From a virus (taxonomy: Duplodnaviria; Caudoviricetes), in IMG/VR virus record IMGVR_UViG_3300032285_002078, positions 1-58,411 of that record: a stretch of 58,411 bases of DNA; one strand, 5' to 3'. The position numbers and the translations under genes were made by a program. Below are positions 10,315 to 49,383 of this stretch, piece after piece. How positions within the stretch are numbered: position 1 is the stretch's first letter; every line of letters starts with the position of its first letter. Under the pieces are notes generated by a model. The model saw only the letters and a program-made list of their open reading frames with translations. It was not told where the DNA came from and made no database searches.

Positions 10315-10315
10315 G

Positions 10316-11759: not shown

Positions 11760-11766
11760 GTGTATA

Positions 11767-12402: not shown

Positions 12403-12422
12403 TTATGTTCTCCTAATTAGTT

Positions 12423-24557: not shown

Positions 24558-25310
24558 TTATCGAGCACTTACACCTGAAAAGTAACCCATTATAAACATA
24601 TCTTCTACTTGCTTCTTGGTGGCTGCATATGTTCTATTAATATTCCATGTAGGGTCTGACATAGTTATCGCTGCATTTGTAAATCTGCCTGATGCCGCAG
24701 TTGTTGCACCAATTATAACATTATCAATTGTGCCTGCTGTCGCCGGATTAATAGTAATTGTACCACTTCCAGTTGGGCTTAATGTTACTGTTTGATTATT
24801 GGACACCGCTGAAAGTTGTCCAAGTAATGATGTAGTTTGTCCAAGTGTTCCAAGCGTTAATGTGCTAGACGGGCTTACTGTAACTAATCCCGTCGGGCTT
24901 ATTGTAACATTTGCTGCTGGGCTTAATGTAACAGTATCAGTTGTAGTAAGAGTTGTAAATCTTCCTGGTGCTGCTGTTGTCACACCAATGCTTGTATTGT
25001 TCAGTGCTGCCGTTGTTGCTGGTGCTAGACTAAAAGTACCAGATGTTAAATTTAAATTACCAGTAATATTGACAGTACCTGTAACATTTAATCCGTCTAA
25101 TGTACCTGCAACATGTGTAACACTTGGTCCTAATGTAGTAGGTGTTAATAAAGCATCCCCGTTATAGCCTAAATAAGAACCAGTTGTAAGTTCAATTTTA
25201 GTACCAGTAACTGTAATGGTATTTGTGACCAAGTTTCCTTCAACGTCTACTACAAAATAAGGGCTAACGTATCCGTGTGCTGATCTAAATAATTTAGAAA
25301 CTGTAGTCAT
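24558..25310 (-). CDS. Tail-fibre-like repeat protein; probable start MTTVSK
   Basis: Carries the SPTG.GT..INPAT.G.I.NV.IG.TT...G.FT repeat shared with its two upstream neighbours; a start at 25310 avoids overlap. Confidence 0.65.
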   Translation of the reverse strand: MTTVSKLFRSAHGYVSPYFVVDVEGNLVTNTITVTGTKIELTTGSYLGYNGDALLTPTTLGPSVTHVAGTLDGLNVTGTVNITGNLNLTSGTFSLAPATTAALNNTSIGVTTAAPGRFTTLTTTDTVTLSPAANVTISPTGLVTVSPSSTLTLGTLGQTTSLLGQLSAVSNNQTVTLSPTGSGTITINPATAGTIDNVIIGATTAASGRFTNAAITMSDPTWNINRTYAATKKQVEDMFIMGYFSGVSAR

Positions 25311-25320
25311 AGTTTTTCCA

Positions 25321-25995
25321 TTAATACATTGCCATGCCATATGCGGCTGCTAATGCGGCTGCATATCCAAATGTAACTGCACTATTTGGGCCAGCTGGCT
25401 GACTGGTCATTGTTAATGTTGTAAATCTTCCAGATGCAGCAGTTGTTGAACCAATAGCTGTATTATTAATAGTACCAGTTACAGTAGGATTAATAATAAG
25501 AGTTCCTGTACCTACTGGACTAATAGTGATAGTGGCATTGTTGCCGTTCATGTTAACGTTGCCAGTAGTTGTTAGGGTAGTAAAAGTAGCCGGTGCAGGA
25601 GTAATATTACCAATAGTTACATTATTCATAGTTCCTGTGGTCGCCGGAGCAATTGTAATAGTACCTGTTCCTGTTGGGCTTAACGTAACTGTAGCATTTG
25701 CTGAATTTAAATTTACAGTACTGGTTGCAGTTAAGGTTGTAAAAGTTCCTGCTTTAGGAGTACTTGCACCAATAATAACATTATTCAATGCACCAGTTGT
25801 TGCTGGATTAACTGCTAAACTATTTGTTACTGTTAAATCTGCAATTGAACTTCCAGTATTAATATACAATGTATTTGTAACTGCATCAGTAGTTACCGCA
25901 ACACCATTTGTTCCTACAACATTTAAAACATTATTAGATGCATGCAGATTAATTGTGTTTTGACCGCTGACTGTGAGATATGTATAACCGTTCAT
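25321..25995 (-). CDS. Tail-fibre-like repeat protein (224 aa)
   Basis: Three copies of the PAT.G..NN..IG..TP....FTTLT repeat; hydrophobic C-terminus. Confidence 0.7.
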   Translation of the reverse strand: MNGYTYLTVSGQNTINLHASNNVLNVVGTNGVAVTTDAVTNTLYINTGSSIADLTVTNSLAVNPATTGALNNVIIGASTPKAGTFTTLTATSTVNLNSANATVTLSPTGTGTITIAPATTGTMNNVTIGNITPAPATFTTLTTTGNVNMNGNNATITISPVGTGTLIINPTVTGTINNTAIGSTTAASGRFTTLTMTSQPAGPNSAVTFGYAAALAAAYGMAMY

Positions 25996-27182
25996 ACGGC
26001 TGCTCCTAAAAGAATAGCCTGTAATTGGCTGAGTGTTATAAGTTGATTACCTGTTGTACTAGGATTTAAAACTGTTATCGTAGTAAATGTGCCAGACGCT
26101 GGCGTAGTTGCACCAACAGATACATTATTAATAGATCCTAAATTTGTAGGGTTAAAAGAAATAGTACCCGTACCCGTTGGGCTCATAGTAATTGTTTGAT
26201 TGTTGCTAACAAATGATCCTGTTGAATTTACTGTTAATATTGTAGCAATTATAGAATCTGGTGCCGATGCTCCTATACTTACATTATTAATTGTACCGGT
26301 TGTTGCAGGATTAATAGTAACTGTGCCAGTTCCGGTTGGTGCTAATGAAATTTGTTGATTAGTACTAATTGCAGATACTGCACTGGTTGATGTTAATTGT
26401 GTAAATGTTCCATCAGTAGGAGTTGATCCTCCAATATTTACATTATTAAAATTTGATACCGTTATAGTGTTTGCTGTAAAAGAATTAGTAACTGTTAAAT
26501 TAGCAACATTATTCAAACTAAATGTTATTGCACTAGGAGCAGTAGTAATTGTAATTGCACTATCTGTATTTTTAATGTTTAGTTTTGTTAATATAAAATC
26601 AGCAGCTAATGTTGTTTGACCCGGAACTTGAACTAACCCAATATTGCTAATTGCCATAGATCCATTTTCATTGACAGCCATGAATCCGTCAGGAAGATTA
26701 GAATTATTCCAATTTTTAAATACACCCAATTCGCCGCCAGTACTTGAACTTTCGCCATCGATGGTTGGAATATATGTAGGTGTTAGTCTTTCATAGTAGG
26801 TAACTTTAAAAGTTAATTTAACGTGTTCTAACGGGGTAACACCGTCATCTTGATTGAAAGGACTGGCTGTTAATATTACTTTAGATGCGTCAACTGTTGC
26901 GCTGAACTGTACTAAATCTCTACCATTATTATTTCTACTGCTAACCAATACTGATGCCTGTTCGGGTCGAGCAGAAACTTTTACGCTAACATACTCAACA
27001 TCATTTTTTCCGTATTCAGCTACTACTTCGTAAACTGCGCTAGAAAATTCTCCAACAAACCATGTATCTATTACGGTATCCGTTGGAATAGGTATTTCAG
27101 ATCCTTTAACGGACCAGTTTATACCCTTTTTAAGTCTCAGGGTATTTCTTAAGCCTTTAACAAAATAGTCTGCAAAGTTCAT
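25992..27182 (-). CDS. Tail-fibre-like repeat protein (396 aa)
   Basis: Same repeat three times in the C-terminal half; ATGA overlap with the next gene; TAAATA at 27203-27208. Confidence 0.7.
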   Translation of the reverse strand: MNFADYFVKGLRNTLRLKKGINWSVKGSEIPIPTDTVIDTWFVGEFSSAVYEVVAEYGKNDVEYVSVKVSARPEQASVLVSSRNNNGRDLVQFSATVDASKVILTASPFNQDDGVTPLEHVKLTFKVTYYERLTPTYIPTIDGESSSTGGELGVFKNWNNSNLPDGFMAVNENGSMAISNIGLVQVPGQTTLAADFILTKLNIKNTDSAITITTAPSAITFSLNNVANLTVTNSFTANTITVSNFNNVNIGGSTPTDGTFTQLTSTSAVSAISTNQQISLAPTGTGTVTINPATTGTINNVSIGASAPDSIIATILTVNSTGSFVSNNQTITMSPTGTGTISFNPTNLGSINNVSVGATTPASGTFTTITVLNPSTTGNQLITLSQLQAILLGAAV

Positions 27183-27274: not shown

Positions 27275-27850
27275 ATGGGTCGTTATTCAGAGTATTTTAA
27301 TGAAATATGGAAATTGCAAGCTAATCGAAAAGTTATTGGAATAACACTATTTGGTGTATTATTTGACAACTCTGTGCCGTTTACACCTGGCAATCAATTA
27401 ACTGTTGCGGATGGTGCTGATAAGGCTATCCAAATACTCACGCAAAAAGGTTATGATTTTGTTATTATTGCAGGACAAGCACCCAGCAGAACTAAAAATT
27501 TAGATCAGCAAGACTTTGAAAATATTCTAAACGGTACCAGAGAAATATTTGAAAGCATGGGTGCAAGAATTAAAAGTGCATATTATTCTCCGGGAACAGA
27601 CAAATCAGATCCGTATGTTAAACCTAATATTGGAATGTTTGAACGGGCACAGTCTGAAGGATTTATTAAATGGGACGGAACTTACTACGTTGGAGCAGAG
27701 TCTAATGATGTTAAGGCTGCGGCAAAAGTTAAATCAATTCCAGTTTTAATTAAATCAGGCAAAGGATCTAAAACAAAAGCGTTTGAATTAACACATCAGG
27801 TTAAGGTACAAGAATTTGATAGCTTATTAGAATTTGCTAACAGCATATAA
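27275..27850 (+). CDS. GmhB/HisB-like HAD-IIIA phosphatase homolog with degenerate catalytic motifs
   Basis: Keeps YYSP....D...KPNIGMF and YVG....D..AA, but motif I reads IGITLFGVL instead of FLDRDGVI. Confidence 0.7.
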   Translation: MGRYSEYFNEIWKLQANRKVIGITLFGVLFDNSVPFTPGNQLTVADGADKAIQILTQKGYDFVIIAGQAPSRTKNLDQQDFENILNGTREIFESMGARIKSAYYSPGTDKSDPYVKPNIGMFERAQSEGFIKWDGTYYVGAESNDVKAAAKVKSIPVLIKSGKGSKTKAFELTHQVKVQEFDSLLEFANSI

Positions 27851-27851
27851 T

Positions 27852-27877
27852 AAAAAAGGAGCAGTTGCTCCTTTTTT
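27852..27877. terminator. Bidirectional intrinsic terminator
   Basis: AAAAAAGGAGCA-gt-TGCTCCTTTTTT between convergent genes. Confidence 0.85.
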
Positions 27878-27881
27878 GTTG

Positions 27882-28493
27882 TTAAAATTCTCTTGAATTT
27901 AGTATATCATCAGTTCCAGTTTGACCTTTCCAAAATGTATTAAATGCCATTGTTCTACGAATTTCAGCTGTTTTATTAGGTAATACTTGATGTCCAACAT
28001 TTGATAATATAAGAAGTAAGTGATTTTTTAAATTAGTTTCAGGTGTTACCAATTCTTTTATACTTACAGGACGTTGTTTTCTATAAAGATAGCAAGGAAT
28101 TTCTTGAACAGTAGTATTCATTGAAAAGTTTAAATTATCCGGGTTATCGTCCAAATACAATACACCGCTAACAACACTAAATGGATGTACGTGATCCTGA
28201 TGGCTGCCTCCTGCTAGAGTTTTATTAGCCCAAGAATTAGATATTTCTATTTTTTCAAAATGTTCAGCACCGTATGCATTTTTTAAATAATTTCCACATT
28301 CGTTTTCTAAAACATCTTTAATTGTTTTAAATTCTTTTCGATTAAAAAGATGTTGATCAATACTTATATCGTTATACTTATTGCGCTTAAATTCAAGTTT
28401 ATCAAATTCTTCACGCAATAAGTCAAAATTTATCTCGTTACTTAAATCTTTAATTAAAACTAAATTGGTAGACAAATTAAAAAATTCGTTCAT
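27882..28493 (-). CDS. Putative 2OG-Fe(II) oxygenase
   Basis: SWAN......H..HVHP.S.VSGVLY...H.V.P......RRTMAFN. Confidence 0.8.
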   Translation of the reverse strand: MNEFFNLSTNLVLIKDLSNEINFDLLREEFDKLEFKRNKYNDISIDQHLFNRKEFKTIKDVLENECGNYLKNAYGAEHFEKIEISNSWANKTLAGGSHQDHVHPFSVVSGVLYLDDNPDNLNFSMNTTVQEIPCYLYRKQRPVSIKELVTPETNLKNHLLLILSNVGHQVLPNKTAEIRRTMAFNTFWKGQTGTDDILNSREF

Positions 28494-30205
28494 ATTACTT
28501 CTTTAAATGCGTTTTTTGTCACCAGCTTGCCGATTTCTGGAAGCCATAAGTATTGCATTTCTGAACGATCTAGAGTTGACAATGCTTCTTTAACTGTTTC
28601 AACTAACGGATCGCCTGCAAGATTAAAGCTGGTATTAAATAAAATAGGAACATTTTTTAACTTGTTAAACTCACTAATTAGTTCATAATAGTGAGGGTTT
28701 TGTTCAGACGTTACTGTTTGAATTCTACAAGTTCCGTCTACGTGTGTGATTGCAGGAATTGAGGATTGTTTATCTTCTAATACATTCACAGCATACATCA
28801 TAAATGGACTGTCTGTACGTGAACGGAAATCAAACCATTCTGATGCATGTTCTGCCATGACTGTACCTGCAAATGGTCTAAACCACTCGCGATGCTTAAC
28901 TTCATTAACAATATCTTTGCCGTTAACAACTGTTGGGTCAAATAAAATTGAACGATTACCTAATGCACGGGGGCCGGCTTCACTGCGTCCTTGATATAAA
29001 CAAACAATGTTCCCGTCTGCAATTAATTTAGCCACTGTAGCGGCACTGGCGTCAGTTTGTAAAAATCCAGTAAAATCAGCATCAGCATAGTTAGCACTAT
29101 TATCAGGTCCAAGATATAAACTTGTCAGCGGAGTTTTTATTGAATCTTTTGTAATTGTCCTATACACATGCTGGCATACCCCCATTACATTTCCACCGTC
29201 GTGGCTTACTGGTTCGTGATAAAATTCAACATCGGGAAATTCTTTTAAAAATTCATAGTTAGCAACACAGTTAAGTACAAAACCTCCAGCCATTACAATT
29301 TTCTTATTACCAGTTATTTCAATTGCTTTTTTAATTAGTGCAATCACACGTTCTTCAGCAGATTTTTGTACGGCATATGCAAGATCTTTTCTAAAATCAT
29401 CAATAAGATCTGGATCAGTGTGCCATGCAACATCGCCTTCGTGCTCTTTTAATTCTGGATTTAAATCGCAACGAATTACATTGCCAGCGGGAAACTTTGG
29501 TTTAATTAAATTACGGTTACTAAATCTGCCTTCGTGAATCTTAATGTTGTTGTTTGGTTTTCCGTACGGTGCAATACCCATCGTTTTTCCTGCTTCGATG
29601 GCATGAAATCCTAGATATTGTGTCACAGCTTCGTAGGTTTTAGTAATACCGTGGCCGTCTGATACTTCAATTTGGCAATCGTCGTCGAACAATTCAAAAC
29701 TATCAACAAGATTTGTACCGTAGTGTACTAACTGACGTTTAATTTCAGCAGGATACCCAAGACTCCAGATAGACTCTACTTCCCATGTTTCCTGCTTTAA
29801 CTGTTCCAAATCAGGAATGTTAATGCCGCTGCCGGCGCCATCAATCACAATAGCGGTAGCAGAATCAAATCCACTATTATAAAATGCTGTTACAGCATGT
29901 GTCATATGATGATCGTCGCCTAGTTTAATAGTTTCTACCTTATGTCCTGGTTGTTTCTTACGAACCAAACAAGTGTAGGCATCTTCACCAGTCCACGGCA
30001 CTTGCCCAAATGCATTACGTGTTCCGCATAATATAAGAAAATCTATATGATCAGTATATTCAAATGCTTTCTCAATGCCTAGAAATGGGTTACCGTCGTA
30101 TTTCAACCTACTTAATCTGTCTTCTTCAATGTAAAAAATTAATTCACTATCTTTGTATAGGGCTGCTGCGCCGTTATGTCCTACATTAATTCCTAATAAC
30201 CACAT
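28490..30205 (-). CDS. Carbamoyltransferase (NodU/CmcH/TobZ family)
   Basis: GHNGAAAL, EEDRLSRLK, HHMTHA, VIDGAG, AGKTMGIAPYG, GGFVLNCVAN, EAGPRALGNRSIL, KHREWFRPFA, HVDGTCRIQTV, NTSFNLAGDPLVE. Confidence 0.95.
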   Translation of the reverse strand: MWLLGINVGHNGAAALYKDSELIFYIEEDRLSRLKYDGNPFLGIEKAFEYTDHIDFLILCGTRNAFGQVPWTGEDAYTCLVRKKQPGHKVETIKLGDDHHMTHAVTAFYNSGFDSATAIVIDGAGSGINIPDLEQLKQETWEVESIWSLGYPAEIKRQLVHYGTNLVDSFELFDDDCQIEVSDGHGITKTYEAVTQYLGFHAIEAGKTMGIAPYGKPNNNIKIHEGRFSNRNLIKPKFPAGNVIRCDLNPELKEHEGDVAWHTDPDLIDDFRKDLAYAVQKSAEERVIALIKKAIEITGNKKIVMAGGFVLNCVANYEFLKEFPDVEFYHEPVSHDGGNVMGVCQHVYRTITKDSIKTPLTSLYLGPDNSANYADADFTGFLQTDASAATVAKLIADGNIVCLYQGRSEAGPRALGNRSILFDPTVVNGKDIVNEVKHREWFRPFAGTVMAEHASEWFDFRSRTDSPFMMYAVNVLEDKQSSIPAITHVDGTCRIQTVTSEQNPHYYELISEFNKLKNVPILFNTSFNLAGDPLVETVKEALSTLDRSEMQYLWLPEIGKLVTKNAFKEVI

Positions 30206-30216
30206 GTGATAATCCT

Positions 30217-31143
30217 TTATTTTGTTGTTTTAGTAATATGTGCTTTGATATTAGCAATAATACTTTTAAGCTCGTCTTTGCTAAAATCCATGATTGAATC
30301 ATTTAATCTATCTGCTTCTTCAGCTGCAAATCCTGCAATCCTAATAGGGCTATAATGTCTAACAGTATTTTTCTTTTCAACGATGTTAAAGTGCTCTGGG
30401 TATGTAATATTGATTGGAAATGTACTGCCGCATACAATAGTTCCAGGTTTATTAAATGCATATGCTAAATGTTGTCCTACACTATCGCATCCAATAAAGT
30501 AATCACTAGCTTCTATGATTGCAGCCCATATTCTTAATGGCACTATATTGTCTGGCTGGAAAATGGGTAAATTTACAACATTTAACTTATGTTCTCCCAT
30601 ATACATGATATTATAATCTTTAGATAATTCTGCAACTAATTCCATAAAAGTAGATTGTTCTATACTTCTACTGCTTTGATCGTACACTACTCCGCCGCCG
30701 CCCAACATACTGCTTCTTCCAAACGGTTGAATTACAATAGTTTTTTCTTTTTGATGTTGCTGTTTTACTTGCCCAAGAATTTCCATTGCGGCAATTTCTT
30801 CAGATTTATTTAAAACAACTGTTGGTTGAACATTTGCAGTAGTGCGTTCTCCTAATATTTCCCACCAAAAACTTTGTTGCAAACTACTGCGTTGATTGTA
30901 ATATTCTCTGTCTCTGTAAGGCTCTGGGCTAATACAGATATTGTCTTTGATTAAGTTTTCAAATAATCCTTTGTGGTTAACATCCCATGCATATTGTTGC
31001 AGAGTAGGATGACCCATATAAAATTCCATGCCACCTTCGCAAACGATGCCGCCAAGTTCTCCTCGTTTATGACTTTCTTCCAATGCTGGAATGCTGGCCA
31101 GTACACGGCCTGCGCCACCGTTGATAAAAAATATTTTTTTCAT
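30217..31143 (-). CDS. GT9-like (GT-B fold) glycosyltransferase
   Basis: N-terminal GGAGRVLASIPAL, IVIQPFG, and LRIWAAIIEASDYFIGCDSVGQHLAYAFNKP resembling the heptosyltransferase DSG..H.A.A...P motif. Confidence 0.7.
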   Translation of the reverse strand: MKKIFFINGGAGRVLASIPALEESHKRGELGGIVCEGGMEFYMGHPTLQQYAWDVNHKGLFENLIKDNICISPEPYRDREYYNQRSSLQQSFWWEILGERTTANVQPTVVLNKSEEIAAMEILGQVKQQHQKEKTIVIQPFGRSSMLGGGGVVYDQSSRSIEQSTFMELVAELSKDYNIMYMGEHKLNVVNLPIFQPDNIVPLRIWAAIIEASDYFIGCDSVGQHLAYAFNKPGTIVCGSTFPINITYPEHFNIVEKKNTVRHYSPIRIAGFAAEEADRLNDSIMDFSKDELKSIIANIKAHITKTTK

Positions 31144-31174
31144 TGTTGCCCTTGATAATGTGCGTATATAACTT

Positions 31175-31180
31175 TATTTA
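31175..31180 (-). promoter_or_regulatory. Late promoter core TAAATA upstream of the glycosyltransferase-carbamoyltransferase-oxygenase operon
   Basis: TAAATA about 32 nt upstream of ATG 31143, the same motif as before the structural genes. A 6-mer in AT-rich DNA could be chance. Confidence 0.55.
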
Positions 31181-31366
31181 TGATACACGTTTTATTGTAA
31201 AATATTCTTGGTTATATAGTCAACCAATATGTTACCGTATTCTATGTGAGACGCAAAATCAAAACACTCCATCCTGTATCGCTGTTAGCATACAATATAG
31301 TCATTTTTTCTCTTGGGAATCAATTAATAGCATATATAGTGTATAAATCAATTACATAGGAATAAT

Positions 31367-31984
31367 ATGAAAAAAGTAGTTAATGCATTTTCAGTGCCTA
31401 TTTTAGAAGCAATTTTTCCATCTAATTCAGATCAGACTTCTGAATGGATGGATAATATAAATTTTTTGCTTGATAGTATGGACGATAAACGATTGTTAAG
31501 TCACGAGTGGAACAATAATGTTGTTACTGATAATAGGAGTACTATTGGATATAGCTCTTTCAATCATGGTAATTTATTAGACGATCCAACATTTCAAAGT
31601 TTTTTTGAAAATATAACTCCATTAATAACTGAATTTTTAGAAAAACTCGAATACACTGGCAACTGGCGATTTGAAAATGCATGGGTCAATGTATATCCGG
31701 TAGGCGCCTATGTTCCATTGCATAATCATGGAAACATGCATTGGAGCGGAGTTTACTATATTACAGCATTAGAAGGTTGTGGCGATTTAAAACTTATTGA
31801 TCCAAAAGAATACGCATTGAGCAACGAACCAAATGGAACCAAATGGAGAGGCGTTAATAATATGAAGATTGATGCTACTACTGATAAACTAGTAATTTTT
31901 CCTGGCTATTTAAAACACGAAACTGATCCAAACTATTCAATAGGTGATAGGGTAGTCATTAGTTTTAATATCATGTGTGTATAA
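31367..31984 (+). CDS. Putative 2OG-Fe(II) oxygenase
   Basis: AWVN.Y......HNH....WSGVYY...L...DP...IFP.YL.H...P.....RVVISFN. Confidence 0.85.
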   Translation: MKKVVNAFSVPILEAIFPSNSDQTSEWMDNINFLLDSMDDKRLLSHEWNNNVVTDNRSTIGYSSFNHGNLLDDPTFQSFFENITPLITEFLEKLEYTGNWRFENAWVNVYPVGAYVPLHNHGNMHWSGVYYITALEGCGDLKLIDPKEYALSNEPNGTKWRGVNNMKIDATTDKLVIFPGYLKHETDPNYSIGDRVVISFNIMCV

Positions 31985-32564
31985 AATGTTATATAATACA
32001 GAATTCCCATTGCTATTAGAAACAACATACGTTGTTGATTCTGAAACTCAACAACGTATGATTAATACTGTATTATCTCAAAAAGATAATGGAAATTATC
32101 ATGGAGGTTACACTTTTCATGTAAAAGATCAATGCGGTGATTTTAAAAATCTATATAATTATTTTTTAAAATCTACTGAAAGTGTTACTGGACCTTTAAC
32201 ATTAGCTCCTCGTAATAAATCTTGGTGCTGGGCCAATGTATATAATCGAGATAATTTTAAAACTAACTTACATGATCATGTTGCAACTTCTTCAATAAAT
32301 GCAATTTATTATTTAAAAATGCCAGTTGATTTAAAACCAAACGAAGGCGGACTGCGAGTCTTTAACATTAATAACGAATTAATAGAATACTACCCTGACG
32401 AATTTGACTTAATAATCATGCCTAGCAATATTCCTCATGAACCGTTATATCATTCATCGGAAGATTTTAGGATAGCTATAAACATGGAAATATGTACTTT
32501 ATTTCCTATTTCTCAAAATTATACAGAAGATAAAATTTATGCAGCCGCGCAACCAAGATTATGA
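31977..32564 (+). CDS. Putative 2OG-Fe(II) oxygenase
   Basis: WANVY...HDH...INAIYYL...GGL...LIIMPS..PHEP.......RIAIN. Confidence 0.75.
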   Translation: MYKMLYNTEFPLLLETTYVVDSETQQRMINTVLSQKDNGNYHGGYTFHVKDQCGDFKNLYNYFLKSTESVTGPLTLAPRNKSWCWANVYNRDNFKTNLHDHVATSSINAIYYLKMPVDLKPNEGGLRVFNINNELIEYYPDEFDLIIMPSNIPHEPLYHSSEDFRIAINMEICTLFPISQNYTEDKIYAAAQPRL

Positions 32565-33054
32565 GCAACTACGAGTATTATCAAAAATAATTATTGATCC
32601 AGAATATTGTGACAAAATTATACATAAGTATGATACTGATCTAGAACGTGTAATACAGCAATCTTTTCGAGATGTTCAAATAAAAAACATTAATATAAAC
32701 GATATTCTAGATTTAAAAAATAATATAATTTCTGCAAACGAAATACACTACAAGTTTGATCTTAATTATGATCAATCAGATTGTTTTTTTGCAAGATACG
32801 ATACTGGTATGCATTATCAATCATTTCATTTAGATTGTATTGCAGGAGAACAACAACGTAAATTATCTTTTAGCTTGTTATTAAATGAAGAATTCACAGG
32901 AGGAGAATTTGAATTGTTAGAAGGAGCTCCTATTCCAACAAAAAAGGGAAAATTATTAGTTTTCCCTTCTTTTTTACCTCATAAAATAACACCAATTACC
33001 AGCCAAACACGATATGTTATATTTGGCTGGTTTTATGGTCCAAATTTTATTTAA
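32539..33054 (+). CDS. 2OG-Fe(II) oxygenase, prolyl-hydroxylase/PKHD-like
   Basis: Y..FHLD, RKLSFSLLLN.EF.GGEF, LVFPSFLPH.I.P.....RY....W..GP. Confidence 0.85.
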   Translation: MQPRNQDYEQLRVLSKIIIDPEYCDKIIHKYDTDLERVIQQSFRDVQIKNININDILDLKNNIISANEIHYKFDLNYDQSDCFFARYDTGMHYQSFHLDCIAGEQQRKLSFSLLLNEEFTGGEFELLEGAPIPTKKGKLLVFPSFLPHKITPITSQTRYVIFGWFYGPNFI

Positions 33055-33055
33055 A

Positions 33056-33568
33056 TTACGGAGTAACAACAGTTCCTGGTATCGTAACAGTACTATCAGC
33101 AACTGCATCGCCGCCAGGGCCTGATACTTTAAGAGATACATCGATTGTTTTGTCCTCGTTGCTACGCTCAAATGTCATAGTAACCGGATTTGGTAAATCT
33201 AGATCTTCTCGAACTTCTTTTTGAACTTTACCGTCAATTGTCCATTCAATAGTTTCAAATATTCCAGCAGCAATTGATATAAAACTATAAACTACTTCGT
33301 TTGAAGTCATTGATGTAAATTTCATGTTAATAGCTGCGCTAGGAGGACCTGGTGGTGGTGGTGGATTTGCAGCTACCCATTCTTCGTGCCATTGGCCGCC
33401 TGAAATCCATTCGTTGTCTCTAAATCGCCAGCCAACATGTACGTGGCTTGGCACTTGTTCCCAATGACCTGGGATATCATTTTTTGCAATAGCATCTGGA
33501 TGCCAAAGACCGCTAGGATCTTCGTCGTGCAGTTGCATTATTTCGTCATTTACTATTTTTGCCCACAT
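33056..33568 (-). CDS. Hypothetical protein with a PKD-like C-terminal domain
   Basis: N-terminus like fibre-associated small proteins (VP..V.VGW), a poly-Pro linker, then WTIDG...V.LKVSGPGG; last gene of the Cys-rich operon. Confidence 0.55.
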   Translation of the reverse strand: MWAKIVNDEIMQLHDEDPSGLWHPDAIAKNDIPGHWEQVPSHVHVGWRFRDNEWISGGQWHEEWVAANPPPPPGPPSAAINMKFTSMTSNEVVYSFISIAAGIFETIEWTIDGKVQKEVREDLDLPNPVTMTFERSNEDKTIDVSLKVSGPGGDAVADSTVTIPGTVVTP

Positions 33569-33585
33569 AATTTATTCCTTATTAA

Positions 33586-35214
33586 TTATTTCCAATAGAT
33601 GATAGCCATGCCTGTTCCTGCATTGCTAACTCTCCAATCTAAATCGCTTGGTGGATATGCAAGAGCTGCTCCTGATCCGTTACATAAATCAAATGTTCCG
33701 CCATAACATATACATAATATATAACATCTGTTTACGCCTGCGCCACCGCCTTTGCCTGCTTTACTAGTTAAATTACAAATTCCAACGCCGCCAGATCCAC
33801 CTAATGTTCCAGCACATGTAATCACATTGGGGAATAACGATTGCTGTAATCTATCTGAACAACATACTTTGCCGGCTGTACCTAAACAACATAGTAGTGT
33901 CCAATTTACCATAGTTGAACTACTATTGTAAAAATAAGTAGAATTACAATATACATATGTCACGCCGCCAGTACCTGCACCTTCTCCTGCGTTTTCAGGA
34001 GTGCTTCCGTATGCTATTTTAGTTGCCCATTGAATTGTGCCGCACCAATATTGTGCATCAAAGCTGATACTTTTTCCAGACGATCCGCTGCCGCACATTG
34101 AATGAATATCGTGCCACGGATATGTTTTTGGAGGAGTAGACGGTGTAAATCTTGAACAAGAATGACAGCCATAATAACTACTAGTAGTTTGCACACCCCA
34201 CCAGTAACATTCTCCCTGTCCCTCATTATTATCGGCGCCGCCCCATCCACCGTGGCCTCCTCTCCAATTTCCACTCATGCAGCAATTGCCTACAATTGGT
34301 ACACATTCACAAGATGTACTTGTTTGCCATTTGGTTCCTCCTCCTCCGCCAGCTGTAGGAGGATAGTTAACATTGTAAGCATCAGGCCCGCTTTGGGCTG
34401 GACTTTGTGGAGTACAAATACAACTACAAGCAGATGCTACCATATTGCCTCTAGTTATATAGCCAATTCCGCCGCCTCCTCCTGCACTAGATCCGCCACC
34501 GCTCATACCCCATACTGTAACAGTATTAACCGCATTTTGGCCAGCGCCGCCCGTACTGTAAATCCAAGAGCCTGCAGATCCGCCGCCTGCATATCTTGCA
34601 TTACAGCAATCGTCGCCTTGATGACCTGGGGATATGGCTGTGCCAACGCCTGCATATACAATGCAATAACCGCAGCAAGTTGTGCAAGAAAAACAAATGC
34701 AAGACCCGCAATAATGACTATAGCTACTGCATAAGTTATAGTTGCATCCTGCACAACCACCGTTACTGTTCCAATCGCCTCCTGATGCAACGCCTGCAAC
34801 ACAACCAGCTGCTCCGCCACCTGTAATTGTTCTAGCAACTGCACCAGTATTAGTATATGCAATTGTAGTATCTTGCTCTTGGCGGCCAACAACAATTGTT
34901 ACTGTGCAACCTGCAGCAACTGCATCAACTTTTTCAGCATATCCGCCGCCAGATCCAGCCATTCCGCAACACTGACCAACTGTACATTTACTCTTGCCGC
35001 CGCCGCCAACAGCAATAGTACGTAAACATGTTGCACCACTAGGCAAAGTAAAAGAGTAGTTGCCCGGAGTATCTAAAATAATACGATTGGGCCAGCACTC
35101 GTTAGCATTGTACGTATACTTGTGTTGCGAAGTTTGATAACATGTTGAATTTATAACAGCATTACAACAGTTTGTTCCAACTTGTGTAGATCCTGTACTT
35201 ATATAACGACCCAT
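33586..35214 (-). CDS. Cys/Gly-rich putative fibre-tip protein; start MGRYIS at 35214
   Basis: TPGNYSFT.P.G...RTIAVGGGG...GSGGGY and C-terminal GTGMAIIYW, as in Gly-rich phage tip domains; about 45 Cys by manual count. Confidence 0.7.
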   Translation of the reverse strand: MGRYISTGSTQVGTNCCNAVINSTCYQTSQHKYTYNANECWPNRIILDTPGNYSFTLPSGATCLRTIAVGGGGKSKCTVGQCCGMAGSGGGYAEKVDAVAAGCTVTIVVGRQEQDTTIAYTNTGAVARTITGGGAAGCVAGVASGGDWNSNGGCAGCNYNLCSSYSHYCGSCICFSCTTCCGYCIVYAGVGTAISPGHQGDDCCNARYAGGGSAGSWIYSTGGAGQNAVNTVTVWGMSGGGSSAGGGGGIGYITRGNMVASACSCICTPQSPAQSGPDAYNVNYPPTAGGGGGTKWQTSTSCECVPIVGNCCMSGNWRGGHGGWGGADNNEGQGECYWWGVQTTSSYYGCHSCSRFTPSTPPKTYPWHDIHSMCGSGSSGKSISFDAQYWCGTIQWATKIAYGSTPENAGEGAGTGGVTYVYCNSTYFYNSSSTMVNWTLLCCLGTAGKVCCSDRLQQSLFPNVITCAGTLGGSGGVGICNLTSKAGKGGGAGVNRCYILCICYGGTFDLCNGSGAALAYPPSDLDWRVSNAGTGMAIIYWK

Positions 35215-35215
35215 T

Positions 35216-36826
35216 TTATGCTTCCCTGTAATATATAATTGCCATGCCTGTTCCGGCATTGCTTACTAGCATGTCAAGTAAACATGGAGGAAATGCTAGT
35301 GCTGGCAAAGAACCGTTACAGCAATCGTAAGTTCCACCATAGCACACACATAGTAGTTGACATTTTGATTGTCCGCCACCGCCACCTTTGCCTGCTTTAC
35401 TAGTATATCTGCACCAGTTTACGCCGCCGGATCCGCCCAGTGTTCCTGCACAAGTAACAAATGTTGGAAACAATGCATCAGACATTAACCATGCTTGATC
35501 ACATTGTCCAGTTGTTCCTAACGAACAAAGTTTTACCCAGTTTACTGGATCTTGATTAACTAACATTATCCCATGCATGGTAGGATTGCAACAAACTGAA
35601 ACAATACCGCCAGTCCCTGCACCTTCGCCAGAATTACGTGGGCGAGGGCCTACAAATCCTCCCCAGCAAGCCATATAATTAGTACGCGAACCAACTGTGC
35701 CTGGACTACCTGATCCTCTCATATCCTGTATATCCCACCAATCATGTTTTGCAATTCCGCAACATTGACTTTTTTCTCTCCAGCCTGTCCAGCAACAACT
35801 GCCGCCAAATGGATATGTACAGAATGCTTTCCAACCCCATTCGTATGTCCAGGCCTGGCCTTCTGATTGGTTGTCTCCGCCTGCGCCGCCATCGCCGCCT
35901 TTCCATACACCATTTGAGCAATCTTGTGATCCAAAACTTCTACAACCATAGCCAAAAGTGATTCTAGTGCCGCCGCCACCTTGGGCCGAACCTGGGTAAT
36001 TTGTACACCAGTTAGTACCTTCACCGTATGCTTCCCATGATCCTCCGCAAATACAATAGCAGCAATTGTAAGACCAATTGCAGCCAGCGTCACAAAAGCC
36101 GCCGATGCCAGCACCGCCGCCAACAGTTCCGCCTGTGCCACCACCACCGCCCGATCCGCAAATTCCCCATGCATAGCCACCGCATAGTGCTAAAAATGAT
36201 CCTGCACTTGCTCCACCAGCAATAGACATACCACAACAGGGACTACCTTCACTTCCAGTTGGTTCGTATTGATAAACAATACAGTATCCGCAACAAGTTG
36301 TTAAAGATATACACTTTTGGCTACCGCAATAATGACTATACGATCCACCGCAGTTATTACAAGTGAAGCCTACGCAACCGCCTCGGCTATTCCAATCTCC
36401 GCCTGTTGCGGCGCCAGGAATACAACCGGCTGCGCCGCCTGCTGTATGTACATTTGTACCATTGCAAGCAAGTGTAGTGTCAGCTTCTTGTCTGCCAACT
36501 ACCACTGTAAATGCCGTTGATCCGCCAGTGATAGCATGAATTTTCTCACTATATGCGCCGCCGGCACCTGCTGCACTATTACAGCCGTTGGTATTACCGT
36601 CGGCAGTTAAACTGATACACTTTGGTTTGCCACCACCACCAACGAGTATGGTTCTTGCACAAATTGCATTTGTAGGTGCAGTCCACGTGTAACTACCTGG
36701 TCTATCAAAGACTACTTTATATTGCCAGCATTGTTTGCCGTCATAGTAGGTCTTTGCACCAGTAACTGTAGGTGCTGTTTTTTCAGCAACACTTACAGCA
36801 TACGAAATTGGTACAAAACGTCCCAT
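35216..36826 (-). CDS. Cys/Gly-rich putative fibre-tip protein, paralog of 33586-35214
   Basis: Shares VVGRQE.DTT, GGDWNS.GGC, SYSHYCGS, TTCCGYCIVY, GEGAGTGG, TCAGTLGGSGGV and VSNAGTGMAIIY; about 45 Cys. Confidence 0.7.
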   Translation of the reverse strand: MGRFVPISYAVSVAEKTAPTVTGAKTYYDGKQCWQYKVVFDRPGSYTWTAPTNAICARTILVGGGGKPKCISLTADGNTNGCNSAAGAGGAYSEKIHAITGGSTAFTVVVGRQEADTTLACNGTNVHTAGGAAGCIPGAATGGDWNSRGGCVGFTCNNCGGSYSHYCGSQKCISLTTCCGYCIVYQYEPTGSEGSPCCGMSIAGGASAGSFLALCGGYAWGICGSGGGGGTGGTVGGGAGIGGFCDAGCNWSYNCCYCICGGSWEAYGEGTNWCTNYPGSAQGGGGTRITFGYGCRSFGSQDCSNGVWKGGDGGAGGDNQSEGQAWTYEWGWKAFCTYPFGGSCCWTGWREKSQCCGIAKHDWWDIQDMRGSGSPGTVGSRTNYMACWGGFVGPRPRNSGEGAGTGGIVSVCCNPTMHGIMLVNQDPVNWVKLCSLGTTGQCDQAWLMSDALFPTFVTCAGTLGGSGGVNWCRYTSKAGKGGGGGQSKCQLLCVCYGGTYDCCNGSLPALAFPPCLLDMLVSNAGTGMAIIYYREA

Positions 36827-36841
36827 ATTATCTATTTCCTA

Positions 36842-37165
36842 TTAAGTTGTACTTGTTTCAATACCGTATGCTACAGCATTAACGCTAGTTGTACTTGCGT
36901 AAACTACAATATACTTATTAGTAGCATCGCATACAAGTCCAGTACGCTCTAATACAGAGTTAGCTGGGATTGTTGTGCCGTATTCAAGGTATTCAGCACC
37001 GCCCGGTGATGTTGAGCTAGCAAGTGCTAGCCTAACAGTTACCGAAGTTGCATTTCTGTTGCAAATTGTTACGTTTACAACGGCAAATGTGCTTGCCGGA
37101 CAAGTATACAGTGTAGTATTTGTCGTTGCTGAAAGGTCTTGAGCGCCTAATCTTCCTGTTGCCAT
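36842..37165 (-). CDS. Small predicted beta-sheet virion protein (107 aa), putative fibre adaptor
   Basis: Similar size and residue pattern to 49769-50098 and 53990-54343; GGAG SD. Confidence 0.6.
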   Translation of the reverse strand: MATGRLGAQDLSATTNTTLYTCPASTFAVVNVTICNRNATSVTVRLALASSTSPGGAEYLEYGTTIPANSVLERTGLVCDATNKYIVVYASTTSVNAVAYGIETSTT

Positions 37166-37180: not shown

Positions 37181-40100
37181 TTATCTTAGTAAGAAGTAGT
37201 TTAATGCTAAGGGACTACCGTCTATACCCTGTGTAAAGTTAGCTTTGTTACGTATATTTATCTGTGTACCAGCCGTATTACTGATGTTGCTACCAGTAAT
37301 TTGGATAGTTCCAGCAACAAGCGTATTTACGTTGACTGTGCTATTACCGCCACCAATTTGGCTAGCAATATATGTTCTAATAGCCTTTTGTGTTGGCACA
37401 ATAGTATCACTATTTGCACTGAATGTTGCATCAGTACTAAACTGACTAATACTTGTATTTGAGCTACCTAGTGTAACACTACCTAGTTGCAATGTCTGTA
37501 ATCCGCTCAAGTTAAATGCATTGGCATTTAATGTAGCAACACCAGTTGATTGCTGAACAGTGAACAAATTACCCACGTTAAAGTTACCGTCTTGATCGGT
37601 ACTTGTGTAGAATACGCGGCCGCCACCACTTTCTACAGTCTGTTGCGAAGGAGCTTCAGCTTGGCTTGGTGTATTTGGATAATTGGTTGTAGCAATTGTG
37701 CCAGTTCCAATACTCAAAAAGTCATGGCCAGTTAAACGAACTTGGCTGTATAATATTCGCATTGTAATTGCTACACCGTGTACTGGTGCAAGTGAAATGC
37801 TCATATTTGGACTGATTTGTAATGTAGCACTATAGTTACCTGCAGTTCCAGTTTGACTACTAATTGTTACTAACTTATAGTAATTACTATTTCCAGCAAA
37901 TTGTATGTTACTACCTAATGTAGGTATAGCAGTCATACCAGATACATTCATATACTGACTATTTTGATAAATGTCAGCATACCCACTACCACTAATTGTA
38001 GTTGTAGAACTTGTGTAACCAGTACCACGATTAGTAAATGTTGGATTACCTAAAACACCAATACCTGTTCTTACAGTATAAGTAGCAGCCGATGTTGCAT
38101 TTGGATCTCCAAGTGTAATTGTTGGAGGCGTAGCATATCCAGAACCTGGTTCGTAGATCCTAAAGCTACTAATTTGTCCACTTGTAACAACTGCGCGGGC
38201 TTCTGCTCGCGTAAAGTTAGGAATACTCAATGCACTTGTGCTGCCACTTGCAATTACTGCCCATGTAGGAGCTGCACTTGTAATTGTAATACTGCCTGTT
38301 CCGCTTGCATGAGCTGTATCAACTGTCCAAGTTGAGCTTGAACTAAATTGTGTGCCTGTTAAATTACCGGTAATTGTAGTACCAGCAATTACTCCAATAC
38401 CATTTAATACAGCACCATTAATAATACCGCTACCACTTGGTGTGCTTGTAACAGTTAATGTAGTTCCACTAATGCTACCAGTAAAGCTAGTACTTGTGTT
38501 ACCAAATGTCAATGAATTCCATGCTAAATTGCTTAATGTACGCGGAGTCCAGTTAATACCATCTGGGCTACTTGCACCTGCACCTGCACCAGTAACGCTG
38601 GTCCATGAACTACCGCTGTTACTTGTAACACTGGTAATTGGGCTCAATGATGAACTTGTACTAACTTGTATTTGATTAGTAGTTTGATTAATATTTGCAA
38701 TATAATAAGTTGTGCCGCTGGCTATTCCACCAAATGTTCCATTATAAGCTGTTGTTAGTGAGCCTGTAGCAGTGGACAATGTTTGATCTTTACCGCCAAA
38801 CGATGTAGCAATTGCAAGTTGTGTACTGCTTGGAACCGCAGTTACATAATATGTAGAACCAACTGTGTATGTTAATCCAGTAGGTGTACCAGTTGTAGTT
38901 GTTACACCTGTACCTGCATTCAATGATGTACCTAATACAAATGTTGTACTACCATTAGTACTGATAATATAGTAAGTAGTTGGGTTAGCGTAACCAGAAA
39001 TAGTACCAGTACCGCCCAATGTGCCACTAATTGTTACAGTCATACCAACAGTCAATGTTGCTGCTGTACAAGTAAATTGTCCAGCTGGGCCGGCAATTAC
39101 AACGCTAGCCAATGTTTGACTTGTTGGTAAAATTGTACCAAAACTAGTTCCTGCAAAAGTTACCGGGCTACCGACACTGATACTTGCTGTACTCGATACT
39201 GTTACCAAGTTTCTAGTAGCAATTACAGGTGTGCCTGTAGCAACAGATTGTGTAGTACTTAAACTATAGCTTGTACCAGCAACTGCAATAGTACCTGTTG
39301 AAGCAATTGATGTATTAATTGTATAAGTACCTGCGCCGCCTGATCCTGAACCAAAAGCAGTAATCCAACCAGTTAAGTTGTTTAGTGCGATACTTGAATT
39401 TTGATAGCTAACATAATTTAATGTATATGTTAATCCTGTTGGAGTACCAGCTGTAGTTGTTATAGGTGTTGAATACTGGCCGCCATTCCAAGGAGGAGTT
39501 ACGCTTAATTGGAATGTAGTAGAACCGTTTGTACGAGTAATATAATATGTATTACCAGTAGCGTAACCTGTAATAGATCCTGTACCGCCTAGTGTACCTG
39601 TAATAGTTACAGTCATACCAACTGTAAGATTAGAAGCTGTACAAATAAAGTCGCCGCTAACGTCATTAATAATTACACCAGCAAGTGTTCCTGCACTAAC
39701 TGTATATGCTAGTCCTGTAAAACTTGTACCGCCAGAAACTGAAGCTGTAGGGGCCGGGCTTACATAATAAGTACCTGCGCCGCCAGAGCCTGTTCCGTTT
39801 GCAGTAACGTAAGTTCCTGCACTTGTTACGGTTCCGCCAGCGCCTGTCGCAGTTGTTCCACTATCAAATGTACAAATACTTGTTGAACATGCTGTTACTT
39901 TAAATGTACCGTTAAAGTTGCTGTTTGCATTACCAGTAATTGTAATTGCTTGGCCTGTTGCAAAAGGTGCAGTCGATTGGACACTACTGAATGTTACAGT
40001 AGCACTTAATCCGTTTCCAGAAATACTACTAATTGATAAACTTTGTGCAACAAAGCCACCTGGCCAACTTACAACCGTGCCCGGAACAATAGTTCCAACA

Positions 40101-48700: not shown

Positions 48701-49383
48701 GACCAGTTGGCTAGATTAGCGGCAAAACTTGTTGATGTATGCCCGGCGGTTGCAATCCACAACGAGCCGCCATATTTGACTACATCCTTAACTTTGTAAC
48801 GAATTGCAGTAGTCCAGTTGCCTTTAAAATCGTTTTGTTGATAAGCAATTTCCCAGAATGCACTATCTGCTTCTAATCCGCTAGCATATGAGCTTACACT
48901 ATTATGTGCAGTAATACATCTGTAAACAGTAGCACCGTACTTAACTAAATCATTAATTTTGTATCGTGTGCTAATTGTCCAATCTTGAGTCCAGTTATCT
49001 GATTTAGCAACAATTTCCCATTTTGATTGATCGCCTTCTAGACCAGATGTTGTATCTGCTCCTGCAACTCCTGAAGTTGTTGTACTTTTACTTGTATGGA
49101 CAGTTAGACATCTATAAACAATACCGTTATATCGTACAATATCACCTGGATTGTATAATGTACTAATAGACCAAGTACTTCTCCAAGTATAGCCGTCTAA
49201 CATTAGTACCCAAGTGCTTGCTGCTAAATCTGGTGCGAAAGTTGCAGCACTGGTGTGTGTACTAAAACAAACATATGTTTTGCCGCCATACGCTACTATA
49301 TCATCTTTGACATACTCGTAACTATTGGCCCAATTACCTTTCCAGGTATATCTAATTTTTGCTATTTTAAAATCTGTAGTCAT
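45748..49383 (-). CDS. Multidomain tail fibre (1211 aa), paralog of the 2840-aa protein
   Basis: Same domain order with shared blocks KSIVANDFTQVI, ELVSVFTYY.HIGYLAENGGKIRAT, RLTGHDFL.IGTG and GGRVFYT.TDQDGNF. Confidence 0.8.
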   Translation of the reverse strand: MTTDFKIAKIRYTWKGNWANSYEYVKDDIVAYGGKTYVCFSTHTSAATFAPDLAASTWVLMLDGYTWRSTWSISTLYNPGDIVRYNGIVYRCLTVHTSKSTTTSGVAGADTTSGLEGDQSKWEIVAKSDNWTQDWTISTRYKINDLVKYGATVYRCITAHNSVSSYASGLEADSAFWEIAYQQNDFKGNWTTAIRYKVKDVVKYGGSLWIATAGHTSTSFAANLANWSVYLDGLQIESATWSNLTTYQRGDVVSYGGYAYRAEQNNSNQTPFNNASYWSVVVANYNFAGDWVGGITPTSYKVGDVVRLNGYLYVATADNTLQEPPNASYWKVVNQGSKWQGPWVTATTYKLGDIVGYGPSTFQCLLAHGATSGNRPDADIGGGTSGTYWTILVQGTTTNVMTSPADMVYYNSGAKTRLPAGTDGQVMKVSGNSPAWGLWGVRTKVYYVAPSGTDAVGYGTTLDKPFKTIKYACNSITGTATLYVKSGVYSEELPITVPANVALVGDELRSTIVQPTSGFVTSNMFYVRDGSAIRNMTLQGLYGTLGTANTYGTKRPTAGAYISLDPTGLTDAAAQIVYRSPYIQNVTTLGTGCIGMKIDGNLHGAGNKSIVANDFTQVISDGIGIWVSNGGKSELVSVFTYYCHIGYLAENGGKIRATDGNNSYGDYGSVAEGTLATESPITGTVNNGGTNAVIGFVFTDGSKILGFEYDNAGISYNSSTTFSFTGSGLNAATSSANIRNGGVYEVRLTDPTNSGSYGGGGYLNVVNNAQSGSGSAGTIYLAAGDTNSSSNYLGMRIIIISGKGSGQYGYISAYNSSSKLATILKESDGTSGWDAMQSVNAIVDLDTTSQYSIEPRITFSAPVSGTRAQARAVIASGRIAKFRVFEPGAGYISAPTFVIGDPNGSGVTYQVRIGDGVLATPTFSNRGTGYLTASATILSGTGYADIYQYGSYLYVSGLASVPGPGANVNFPSSTANYRLVSTSNITGTGPYSAKFNVYPAIPLAEAPPQGQTVTIRTNYSQTRLTGHDFLEIGTGNAAATNYPSIDVTAIKPQNLAVESGGGRVFYTATDQDGNFRVGSLFKVEQASGTATLNASFFQLNGLSQLTLGGIVLGGTSATITEISTDATLPANSDNVLVTQKAIKSYIASRIGGGGANLNVNEITAGQIKIATTNQITNTLGTSINFKNKVNFTGGIDGSMLATAFFVSSGAQ

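Follow-up and report, generated by a model that had tools for sequence, protein, structure and literature searches.

Freeman and colleagues reportedly described in 2023 that the capsids and tails of mycobacteriophages are glycosylated by phage glycosyltransferases whose genes lie beside structural genes. TibC is a protein O-heptosyltransferase that, according to extracts of PMC4358343, modifies serines of a glycine-rich beta-helix with ADP-heptose; its catalytic base is Asp110, and Arg286, Trp305, Thr226 and Lys230 bind the sugar. The inner core of Pseudomonas lipopolysaccharide (LPS) contains 7-O-carbamoyl-heptose, with WapO as the putative carbamoyltransferase (extracts of PMC8005017). In cyanophages, a block of genes next to the tail fibres has carried the label 'LPS genes' since 2005, its use being unexplained (P-SSM2 PSSM2_301-315, S-SSM7 SSSM7_113-134, S-CAM1 SXBG_00229-00215; T4-GC 302-308 of Sullivan et al. 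2005/2010). Among phage fibres, Pam3 gp24 recognises the receptor; it contains 12 glycine-rich motifs, is attached through disulfides and is likened by its authors to the S16 gp38 adhesin (extracts of PMC9942802). Fibres of this kind combine a TNF-like or beta-helix domain with a glycine-rich domain of the polyglycine type. Here we analysed a DNA stretch of 58,411 bases, the entire IMG/VR record IMGVR_UViG_3300032285_002078 of a tailed virus (Caudoviricetes), which is called the window throughout. In the window, a heptosyltransferase-like glycosyltransferase (GT) and a NodU/TobZ-type O-carbamoyltransferase (CT) lie in one operon, close to two Cys/Gly-rich proteins with a predicted fibre-tip fold and in the midst of tail-fibre genes. 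We propose, at a probability of about 0.5, that GT and CT decorate the fibre tips of the phage itself with a carbamoylated heptose. The genes concerned, with lengths in amino acids (aa), are the following.

30217..31143, minus strand: heptosyltransferase-like glycosyltransferase of the GT-B type (GT), 308 aa, phrog_8954, assigned by fold
28490..30205, minus strand: NodU/TobZ-type O-carbamoyltransferase (CT), 571 aa (phrog_1601, E 3.8e-155)
27882..28493, minus strand: 2-oxoglutarate-Fe(II) (2OG) oxygenase A, third gene of the GT-CT operon (PF13759, E 1.4e-11)
31367-31984, plus strand: 2OG oxygenase B (PF13759, E 2.6e-18)
31977-32564, plus strand: 2OG oxygenase C (PF13759, E 7.3e-5, under the cut-off; phrog_81, E 3.1e-10)
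32539-33054, plus strand: 2OG oxygenase D (PF13640, E 1.9e-14)
27275..27850, plus strand: GmhB-like HAD-fold protein, N-terminus MGRY (NF006506, 64.6 bits)
35216..36826, minus strand: Cys/Gly-rich protein 1, predicted fibre tip (adhesin type), 536 aa, N-terminus MGRF, 8.4% Cys and 20.5% Gly
33586..35259, minus strand: Cys/Gly-rich protein 2, predicted fibre tip and paralogue of the former, listed open reading frame (ORF) of 557 aa, 8.1% Cys and 18.0% Gly

In the proposed mechanism, nucleoside diphosphate-heptose (NDP-heptose) would be supplied by phage kinase, adenylyltransferase, cupin and epimerase genes outside the window, or by the host. The GT, as a soluble enzyme, would act in the cytoplasm and transfer the heptose to fibre proteins of the phage itself, with the Cys/Gly-rich tips as the likeliest acceptors, and the CT would O-carbamoylate that heptose with carbamoyl phosphate and ATP. 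Neighbouring enzymes that differ from relative to relative, here the 2OG oxygenases, could add optional tailoring. Enzyme families, sugar and target would all be different from those of the mycobacteriophage virion glycosylation. Protein heptosylation has a precedent in TibC (PMC4358343), and the pairing of heptose transfer with heptose O-carbamoylation that we propose has one in the Pseudomonas LPS core with WapO (PMC8005017). The analysis shows gene identities, modelled folds, conserved linkage and sugar-supply genes in relatives; from these we infer heptose as the sugar, its carbamoylation and, with the greatest reserve, a protein as acceptor. A first-pass annotation, made from the letters of the window, had suggested a pathway that adds and tailors a sugar on the phage's fibres. 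All genes that it named are present where it had placed them, and linkage, the GT fold, the heptose genes and the tip fold speak for its idea, while the variable oxygenases and a GmhB-like protein that is probably not a phosphatase weaken it.

The GT matched no Pfam family at E ≤ 0.01 and missed all curated cut-offs for GT9 and LPS heptosyltransferases (17.8 bits against a cut-off of 170.2 for the NCBIfam heptosyltransferase III model TIGR02201, E 1.4e-3 over 38 residues; 14.6 bits against 467 for NF007742). Its family comprises 2701 database proteins at E ≤ 1e-5, with 382 representatives at the 50% identity level. An AlphaFold model computed from 86 diverse members reached a pLDDT of 97.4 and a pTM of 0.94. 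A Foldseek search with this model returned TibC (4rap) first (E 7e-10), followed by WaaF, a GT9 protein of Veillonella and WaaC (E 1.9e-8 to 1.6e-7). Structural alignment by VIA gave Z scores of 22.7 for 3tov (GT9), 20.8 for TibC, 20.3 for WaaF and 19.0 for WaaC; the next GT-B fold followed at 12.0 and the remaining ones at 12 or less. Because the modelled fold matches while the curated GT9 cut-offs are missed, we call the protein heptosyltransferase-like by fold and do not count it as a member of curated GT9. The earlier label 'GT9-like' therefore holds for the fold, which is nearest to solved heptosyltransferases (Z 19-23), and fails at the level of the curated family.

The catalytic-domain fold of TibC/AAH (4rap, 4rb4) is common to the GT. 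The alignment (rmsd 2.9, 265 residues) covers TibC 97-392 from GT residue 1 onwards, at a sequence identity of 12-13%, and the GT has no counterpart of TibC residues 1-96. This N-terminal part of TibC may be its iron-finger region; assembly into dodecamers is a further trait of the TibC class. With WaaC and WaaF the GT shares, besides the fold (Z 19-20), the donor-site motif; its gene, however, lies in a phage fibre operon and not in an LPS core cluster. In the heptosyltransferase family this motif reads D-(S/T)-G-x-x-H. Its form in the GT, D220-S-x-G-x-H225, is invariant in the 86 sequences, and D220 and H225 align with D261 and H266 of WaaC in a profile alignment to 1psw and 2h1f. The polar residues D155, D220, H225, R13, E74 and R159 are invariant or nearly so in these sequences, which share 25-76% identity, and this conservation argues for an enzyme. 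Conserved candidates for counterparts of the catalytic base and sugar-binding residues of TibC are E74, D155, R159, R204 and R268.

The CT had been named a carbamoyltransferase in the first pass, and this was confirmed by both Pfam domains (Carbam_trans_C, 208.5 bits with a cut-off of 27; Carbam_trans_N, 72.2 bits with a cut-off of 24) and by matches to solved O-carbamoyltransferases in the PDB, namely 7xb6 (E 1.1e-53), NovN 9s2t (E 2.2e-51), GdmN and TobZ (E 7.3e-43). The first ~100 residues fit the Pfam N-terminal model poorly, the match beginning at profile position 130. Against the NodU equivalog NF041651 the CT scored 134 bits, with a cut-off of 1000. Judged by sequence, the CT is thus a member of the family and not a NodU orthologue. 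The two-domain architecture is common to TobZ, NovN and GdmN; these enzymes tailor antibiotics, and a sugar is the putative substrate of the CT. GT and CT are separated by 11 nt, and the frames of CT and oxygenase A overlap by 4 nt. The three genes are packed as a tight operon, in line with the co-transcription of GT and CT claimed before.

Conservation of this arrangement was followed within the clade in 20 relative loci from IMG/VR. CT comes directly after GT in all 19 loci that have downstream DNA. Cys/Gly genes are found upstream in every locus whose upstream DNA spans ~5.9 kb or more (15 of 15; the remaining five have 3.8 kb or less), and the HAD-like gene occurs in each of the 17 loci that extend far enough downstream. 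Identity to the window is 70-91% for GT and CT and 43-61% for the tip proteins.

Beyond the clade, a tblastn search with the GT matched 55 phage records, 23 of them of the Kyanoviridae type, 31 from Vibrio phages and one from an Aeromonas phage. P-SSM2, S-SSM7 and S-CAM1 have the order tail fibre, 106-aa protein, Cys-rich proteins, small non-Cys protein, GT, CT, and each encodes 2-3 paralogous proteins with 8.4-11.6% Cys and 13.8-17.9% Gly, namely PSSM2_304/306, SSSM7_114-116 and SXBG_00224-226. The single-cell virus contigs P14 and O18 (SAG viruses) show the same order, and 1-3 proteins of 8.4-11.6% Cys are present in each of the five. When PSSM2_304 and SXBG_00224 were used as tblastn queries, 11 and 12 phage records were matched; each stemmed from a phage that carries the GT, save one that is a different contig from a single cell with a GT. 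Gene order is thus common to the window and the cyanophage block, at 41-44% identity for GT and 42-49% for CT; the cyanophage GTs differ by a C-terminal tail of 60-110 aa, and the tip proteins of the window are about twice as long. More distant GT loci were sought from three single distant representatives, one of which yielded none. GT homologues between tail-fibre genes were found in a Vibrio schitovirus and in Aeromonas phage HJ05, in both cases with no CT. On a 187-kb contig (L036), the GT stands behind a protein of 8.1% Cys and 24.8% Gly, likewise with no CT. A Gly-rich or Cys-rich gene lies directly upstream of the GT in HJ05 and L036.

The gene block is already in print as cyanophage 'LPS genes'; its tie to Cys-rich fibre tips was not found in the literature. 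The word 'cysteine' has no occurrence in the available text of PMC1079782 and PMC3037559, where the Cys-rich neighbours go unmentioned, and the S-SCSM2R paper with its supplements held nothing further on this module. Our literature search found no link between these enzymes and fibre glycosylation, Cys-rich tips or virion heptosylation.

The donor of the GT would be NDP-heptose. In cyanophages and SAG contigs, the genes directly behind CT encode a cytidylyltransferase-like protein, a kinase of the PfkB type, a small HAD protein, a cupin and an SDR epimerase. A near-complete relative of the window (L017 in G001, a 356,312-base record, 96% complete) carries, side by side at 335-338 kb, genes for an epimerase, a cupin, a cytidylyltransferase-like protein, a PfkB protein and a further epimerase, and these are 35-45% identical to the P-SSM2 genes. 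Unlike in the cyanophage block, the sugar genes are not in the window, and in this relative they lie ~285 kb away on the record. The sugar genes of the cyanophages and of the complete relative support NDP-heptose as donor and suggest that such genes also exist in the phage of the window, beyond the visible 16% of its genome. SIS_2 (GmhA) and cytidylyltransferase had no match in the window, which as a 16% complete record is uninformative on the genome in this respect. The 96%-complete relative has no SIS-type GmhA and no homologue of the cyanophage small HAD protein (tblastn, E ≤ 0.01).

The cyanophage gene annotated as 'phosphoheptose isomerase' encodes a small HAD-type protein with a D-x-D-G-T start (L001 11903-12247, which is P-SSM2 PSSM2_311; L032 10530-10874; L033 2146-2496). 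By its sequence this protein looks like a pathway phosphatase and not like GmhA, and the cupin beside it may be an isomerase or epimerase. In the complete relative, sugar-nucleotide genes stand beside a tail lysozyme with LysM, a GH19-like protein and an M23 peptidase (L031 6021-9351, corresponding to G001 332-335 kb).

The putative acceptors are the two Cys/Gly-rich proteins. That two such genes stand beside the enzymes, as noted in the first pass, was borne out: of the window's 38 non-overlapping ORFs with 150 aa or more, exactly these two contain at least 6% Cys, and in the 96%-complete relative the same threshold is reached by 2 of 241 such ORFs, both just upstream of the GT. The two proteins are 47% identical to each other, and many Cys and Gly positions are invariant over 38 sequences of the family. 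Because many homologues begin at MGRY, protein 2 probably starts at an internal MGRY at position 35214, which would shorten it to 542 aa. An AlphaFold2 model of protein 1 had a pLDDT of 80.8. Foldseek gave no match for this model at E ≤ 0.001 (best E 5.7e-3). VIA alignment, run on Foldseek's candidates, related the model to the Pam3 fibre (7ypx, Z 11.0, rmsd 3.2, 164 aligned residues, 24% identity; 7yfw, Z 10.3), to the mycobacteriophage Bxb1 tail tip (Z 9.8) and to the glycine-rich domains of ALK/LTK (Z 7-9); at the next unrelated row the score drops to Z 3.6. Since the modelled fold matches phage fibre tips, we regard the two proteins as fibre-tip proteins, and they are probably receptor-binding. 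A TNF-like plus polyglycine-type fold is common to them and to the Pam3 fibre. They differ from Pam3 gp24 by their length of 536-557 aa, large insertions and 8% Cys, and the match covers about a third of them. For gp24 no glycosylation is reported in the available text ('glycos' has no occurrence in PMC9942802).

Sequence comparison connects the tips of the window with those of cyanophages over a short stretch. A profile of the window tips aligned with the cyanophage family by hhalign (95.4%, E 1.7e-8), the match being confined to the first 85 columns. The family PF21722 (Gly_rich_2) had no match in either window tip protein at E ≤ 1; its cut-off was passed by three of eight cyanophage Cys-rich counterparts, and precomputed annotation places it on 8 of the 120 listed tip homologues. 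In tblastn against phages the 536-aa protein gave no match, to which the low-complexity filter may have contributed.

In a six-frame search of window ORFs of at least 80 aa, an M-(G/A)-R-(F/Y) start was seen in the two tip proteins and the GmhB-like protein only, at 27275 (plus), 36826 (minus) and 35214 (minus, the likely internal start). In the 356-kb relative L017, MGR(F/Y) starts belong to the equivalent three proteins only (3224, 4871 and 13236). Small or Cys-rich proteins of the cyanophage modules start with MGRF, MGRN or MARF. The tetrapeptide could be a docking or processing signal.

A number of observations weigh against decoration of the fibre tips, and the first group concerns the GT itself. 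GT9-like subunits of the plant NDH complex also match the GT model (Z 17.9-18.4), and such folds can be non-catalytic, serving in NDH-PSI as structural subunits. In the N-terminal glycine loop of the GT, G12-R13 is near-invariant. WaaC has its catalytic Asp13 in a G-D motif that may correspond to this place; the GT would then carry an Arg instead of the Asp. The GT could accordingly have kept a heptosyltransferase fold while serving the fibre tips as a structural protein or assembly factor, and in S-SSM7 it does come after a chaperone-like gene. We hold this to be very improbable in view of the invariant D220-S-x-G-x-H225 motif and the conserved charged residues in 86 diverse sequences, and also of the NDP-heptose supply genes and the sugar-tailoring CT that accompany the GT.

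A second group concerns the acceptor, and that it is a protein we infer purely. The published interpretation of the cyanophage 'LPS genes' is modification of the host surface (extracts of PMC1079782, PMC3037559 and PMC12801897). During infection, GT and CT would then equip host LPS or a different envelope glycan with carbamoyl-heptose and so hide the receptor that the adjacent adhesins recognise, with superinfection exclusion or protection of progeny from debris as the result; the enzymes would be co-inherited with an adhesin type and leave the adhesin itself unmodified. The closest known chemistry, that of the Pseudomonas inner core with WapO, takes place on LPS (extracts of PMC8005017). WaaF and WaaC score nearly at the level of TibC (Z 20.3 and 19.0 versus 20.8), and a sigma-70-like match lies ahead of the GT beside a late-like motif. 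A receptor-blocking gene can adjoin a receptor-binding gene, as T5 llp does beside pb5. Yet the GT stays below the cut-off of all curated LPS-heptosyltransferase models (17.8 bits where 170 are required), appears to have Arg at the place of the WaaC-type Asp, and is found within the fibre operons of several unrelated phage groups, strictly lytic ones included. For the LPS of marine picocyanobacteria an absence of heptose is reported, which would leave no usual acceptor. Modification of the host surface is the main rival to tip decoration, and we consider it unlikely.

The third group concerns linkage. One of the two distant GT lineages recovered (contigs L034/L035) has heptose genes but neither CT nor a Cys-rich Gly-rich protein. 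The co-occurrence and synteny that the first-pass annotation had named as a test came out largely in its favour, in the IMG/VR clade as well as in cyanophages. CT was found in 146 phage records and GT in 55, and many CT records are without GT. Clusters of heptose genes also occur in S-SM2 (extracts of PMC3037559), which had no GT match in tblastn of phage records; S-SM1, S-PM2 and Syn9 are likewise not among the GT-bearing records. The conserved block may stem from one ancestral block or one transfer, and repeated synteny would then represent fewer independent events than the loci suggest.

The L034/L035 region (1-15000) encodes a GT of 35% identity, methyltransferase-like genes, a fused kinase-adenylyltransferase, an epimerase and three Gly-rich proteins of ~390-400 aa with 15-16% Gly and at most 1.3% Cys.

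Weakening the first-pass reading, the oxygenases are optional neighbours and not core parts. Three of the four 2OG oxygenases recognised in the first pass exceed the Pfam cut-off of 27 bits (A, B and D with 45.1, 66.7 and 54.8 bits); the fourth, C, is weaker at 23.5 bits and is supported by phrog_81. A close homologue of oxygenase A (72% identity) occupies its position in one of the 20 relatives (L014), and tblastn matches to B, C and D are missing from L015, L017 and L022. In close relatives the oxygenase slot is filled by other oxygenases, GDSL-like proteins or unknowns, and behind CT there are methyltransferase-like, GATase, TctC and APS-kinase-like genes. Other tailoring chemistries may be swapped in behind CT, and on account of this variation the oxygenases are not counted as a fixed part of the pathway suggested earlier. 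At L012 14988-16677 and L004 12662-17059 the place behind CT is taken by two P-loop proteins together with a gene resembling APS kinase, or by a methyltransferase-like protein, a GATase and a TctC-type binding protein.

These variable slots would also fit a coincidental neighbourhood, in which auxiliary enzymes have collected in a hyperplastic region beside the fibre genes and have some other target: small molecules, DNA or a further virion protein, for instance that of the capsid. CT and heptose genes found without this GT, and the lack of Cys-rich genes in L034/L035, point the same way. Against coincidence, GT and CT (70-91% identity) are far better conserved than their neighbours and never occur outside the fibre block in the 20 relatives or the five cyanophage-type loci, and we regard it as quite improbable. 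DNA hypermodification is unlikely: PF00303 (thymidylate synthase/hydroxymethylase) had no match in the 96%-complete relative, whose single GT copy is located in the fibre block.

The GmhB-like protein also weakens the first-pass reading. It resembles heptose bisphosphate phosphatases, as had been noted, and remains under the curated cut-offs (NF006506, 64.6 versus 178 bits; TIGR00213, 23.1 versus 149.6 bits). Compared with the heptose-1,7-bisphosphate phosphatase 4pnh, it has T-L-F at the D-R-D nucleophile and Ala at the first Asp of motif IV. The HAD catalytic aspartates were found in none of 17 homologues, which are otherwise well conserved. Going by these substitutions, the protein is probably a pseudo-enzyme and not a phosphatase. 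Its gene always stands divergently beside that of a 396-aa fibre protein.

With regard to timing, the TAAATA core that the first-pass annotation saw ahead of the GT operon and the structural genes is present and enriched in sense orientation, and its meaning is ambiguous since a sigma-70-like match is also there. The sequence CATAAATA lies 39 nt before the GT start and has like counterparts before the sheath, adaptor and fibre genes. In 45 windows of 80 nt upstream of genes, ATAAATA occurred eight times in sense and three times in antisense orientation; shuffled sequences had a mean of 1.8 over 1000 shuffles and reached eight once in 1000. The exact T4 late consensus TATAAATA has only two occurrences, with 8.2 expected. 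The sigma-70-like match upstream of the GT is TTGACT-18-TACAAT (10/12). Judging from these motifs, late expression of the GT operon is plausible. The P-SSM2 paper with reverse-transcription quantitative PCR contained no genome-wide timing data. Terminator-like sites gave no usable signal (11 versus 8.5 +/- 2.8 in shuffles). The divergent intergenic region between GT and oxygenase B measures 223 nt and holds three motifs (sites 31194-31223, minus strand, and 31340-31350, plus strand): the sigma-70-like match and CATAAATA, both for the GT, and on the other strand TATAAATC, ~20 nt before oxygenase B.

If the tips are decorated as proposed, host recognition would depend on a phage-made glycan, host-range predictions from fibre sequence would need revision, and protein heptosylation, so far confined to bacterial autotransporters, would extend to viruses. 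The module occurs in abundant ocean cyanophages and many uncultured large phages, and the hypothesis is testable on the cultured phages P-SSM2, S-SSM7 and S-CAM1. A wider version of it, which we find doubtful and put forward tentatively, is that several phage lineages heptosylate and then carbamoylate their own Cys-rich tips by way of a phage-specific heptosyltransferase branch; in this jumbo-phage clade, MGR(F/Y) would mark proteins that are mounted on a shared fibre or processed for it, and the GmhB-like protein would be a fibre-borne sugar-binding module. Such a modification of virion proteins is not known from any phage so far.

The enzyme region is flanked by the following genes.

45748..49383, minus strand: tail fibre protein, 1211 aa (phrog_9851 tail fibre, E 4.6e-183)
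37181..45703, minus strand: giant tail fibre, 2840 aa (phrog_9851, E 1.8e-196; six stretches of PF02839, CBM_5_12)
36842..37165, minus strand: small fibre-type protein, 107 aa (phrog_11338 tail fibre, E 9.4e-8)
33056..33568, minus strand: small protein, 170 aa, with an N-terminal domain, a proline-rich linker (PPPPPGPP) and an Ig/PKD-like C-terminal part
24558..27182, minus strand: three Thr/Gly/Asn-repeat fibre-like proteins of 396, 224 and 260 aa, recognised from their translations

The phrog tail-fibre matches bear out that the enzymes lie between fibre genes on both sides. The 107-aa protein is 51-53% identical to PSSM2_302 and SXBG_00228, which have the equal position in their phages. The 396-, 224- and 260-aa proteins had no family match in Pfam or PHROG and no BLASTP link to their positional counterparts in cyanophages; their genes are kept downstream of the HAD gene in relatives. 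AATAAATA lies 28 nt ahead of the first of them, and GATAAATA is found at -34 relative to the giant fibre gene 37181..45703. The six carbohydrate-binding CBM_5_12 stretches of the 2840-aa fibre hint at a polysaccharide-coated host.

The 170-aa protein had no Pfam or PHROG match and no BLASTP link to cyanophage proteins; the label Ig/PKD-like comes from Atlas leads only, all with scores below 0.9. In S-SSM7 its slot is held by the tail-assembly-chaperone-like SSSM7_118 (PF16778, E 1.1e-9). In Aeromonas phage HJ05, a protein of similar layout comes directly after the GT homologue.

The origin of the window is indicated by its T4-type structural genes, namely a gp32-like single-stranded DNA-binding protein, large terminase, sheath, tube, head-tail adaptor and sheath stabiliser. 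A megablast search of the region against 50,697 phage records gave no match. CheckV puts the completeness of the record at 16%, which implies a genome of ~360 kb and a T4-related jumbo phage. The terminase is nearest to those of jumbo phages; identity is 54% with Pseudomonas phages of the PA5oct type, 50% with Sinorhizobium phage Phosso and 46% with Erwinia phages of 355 kb.

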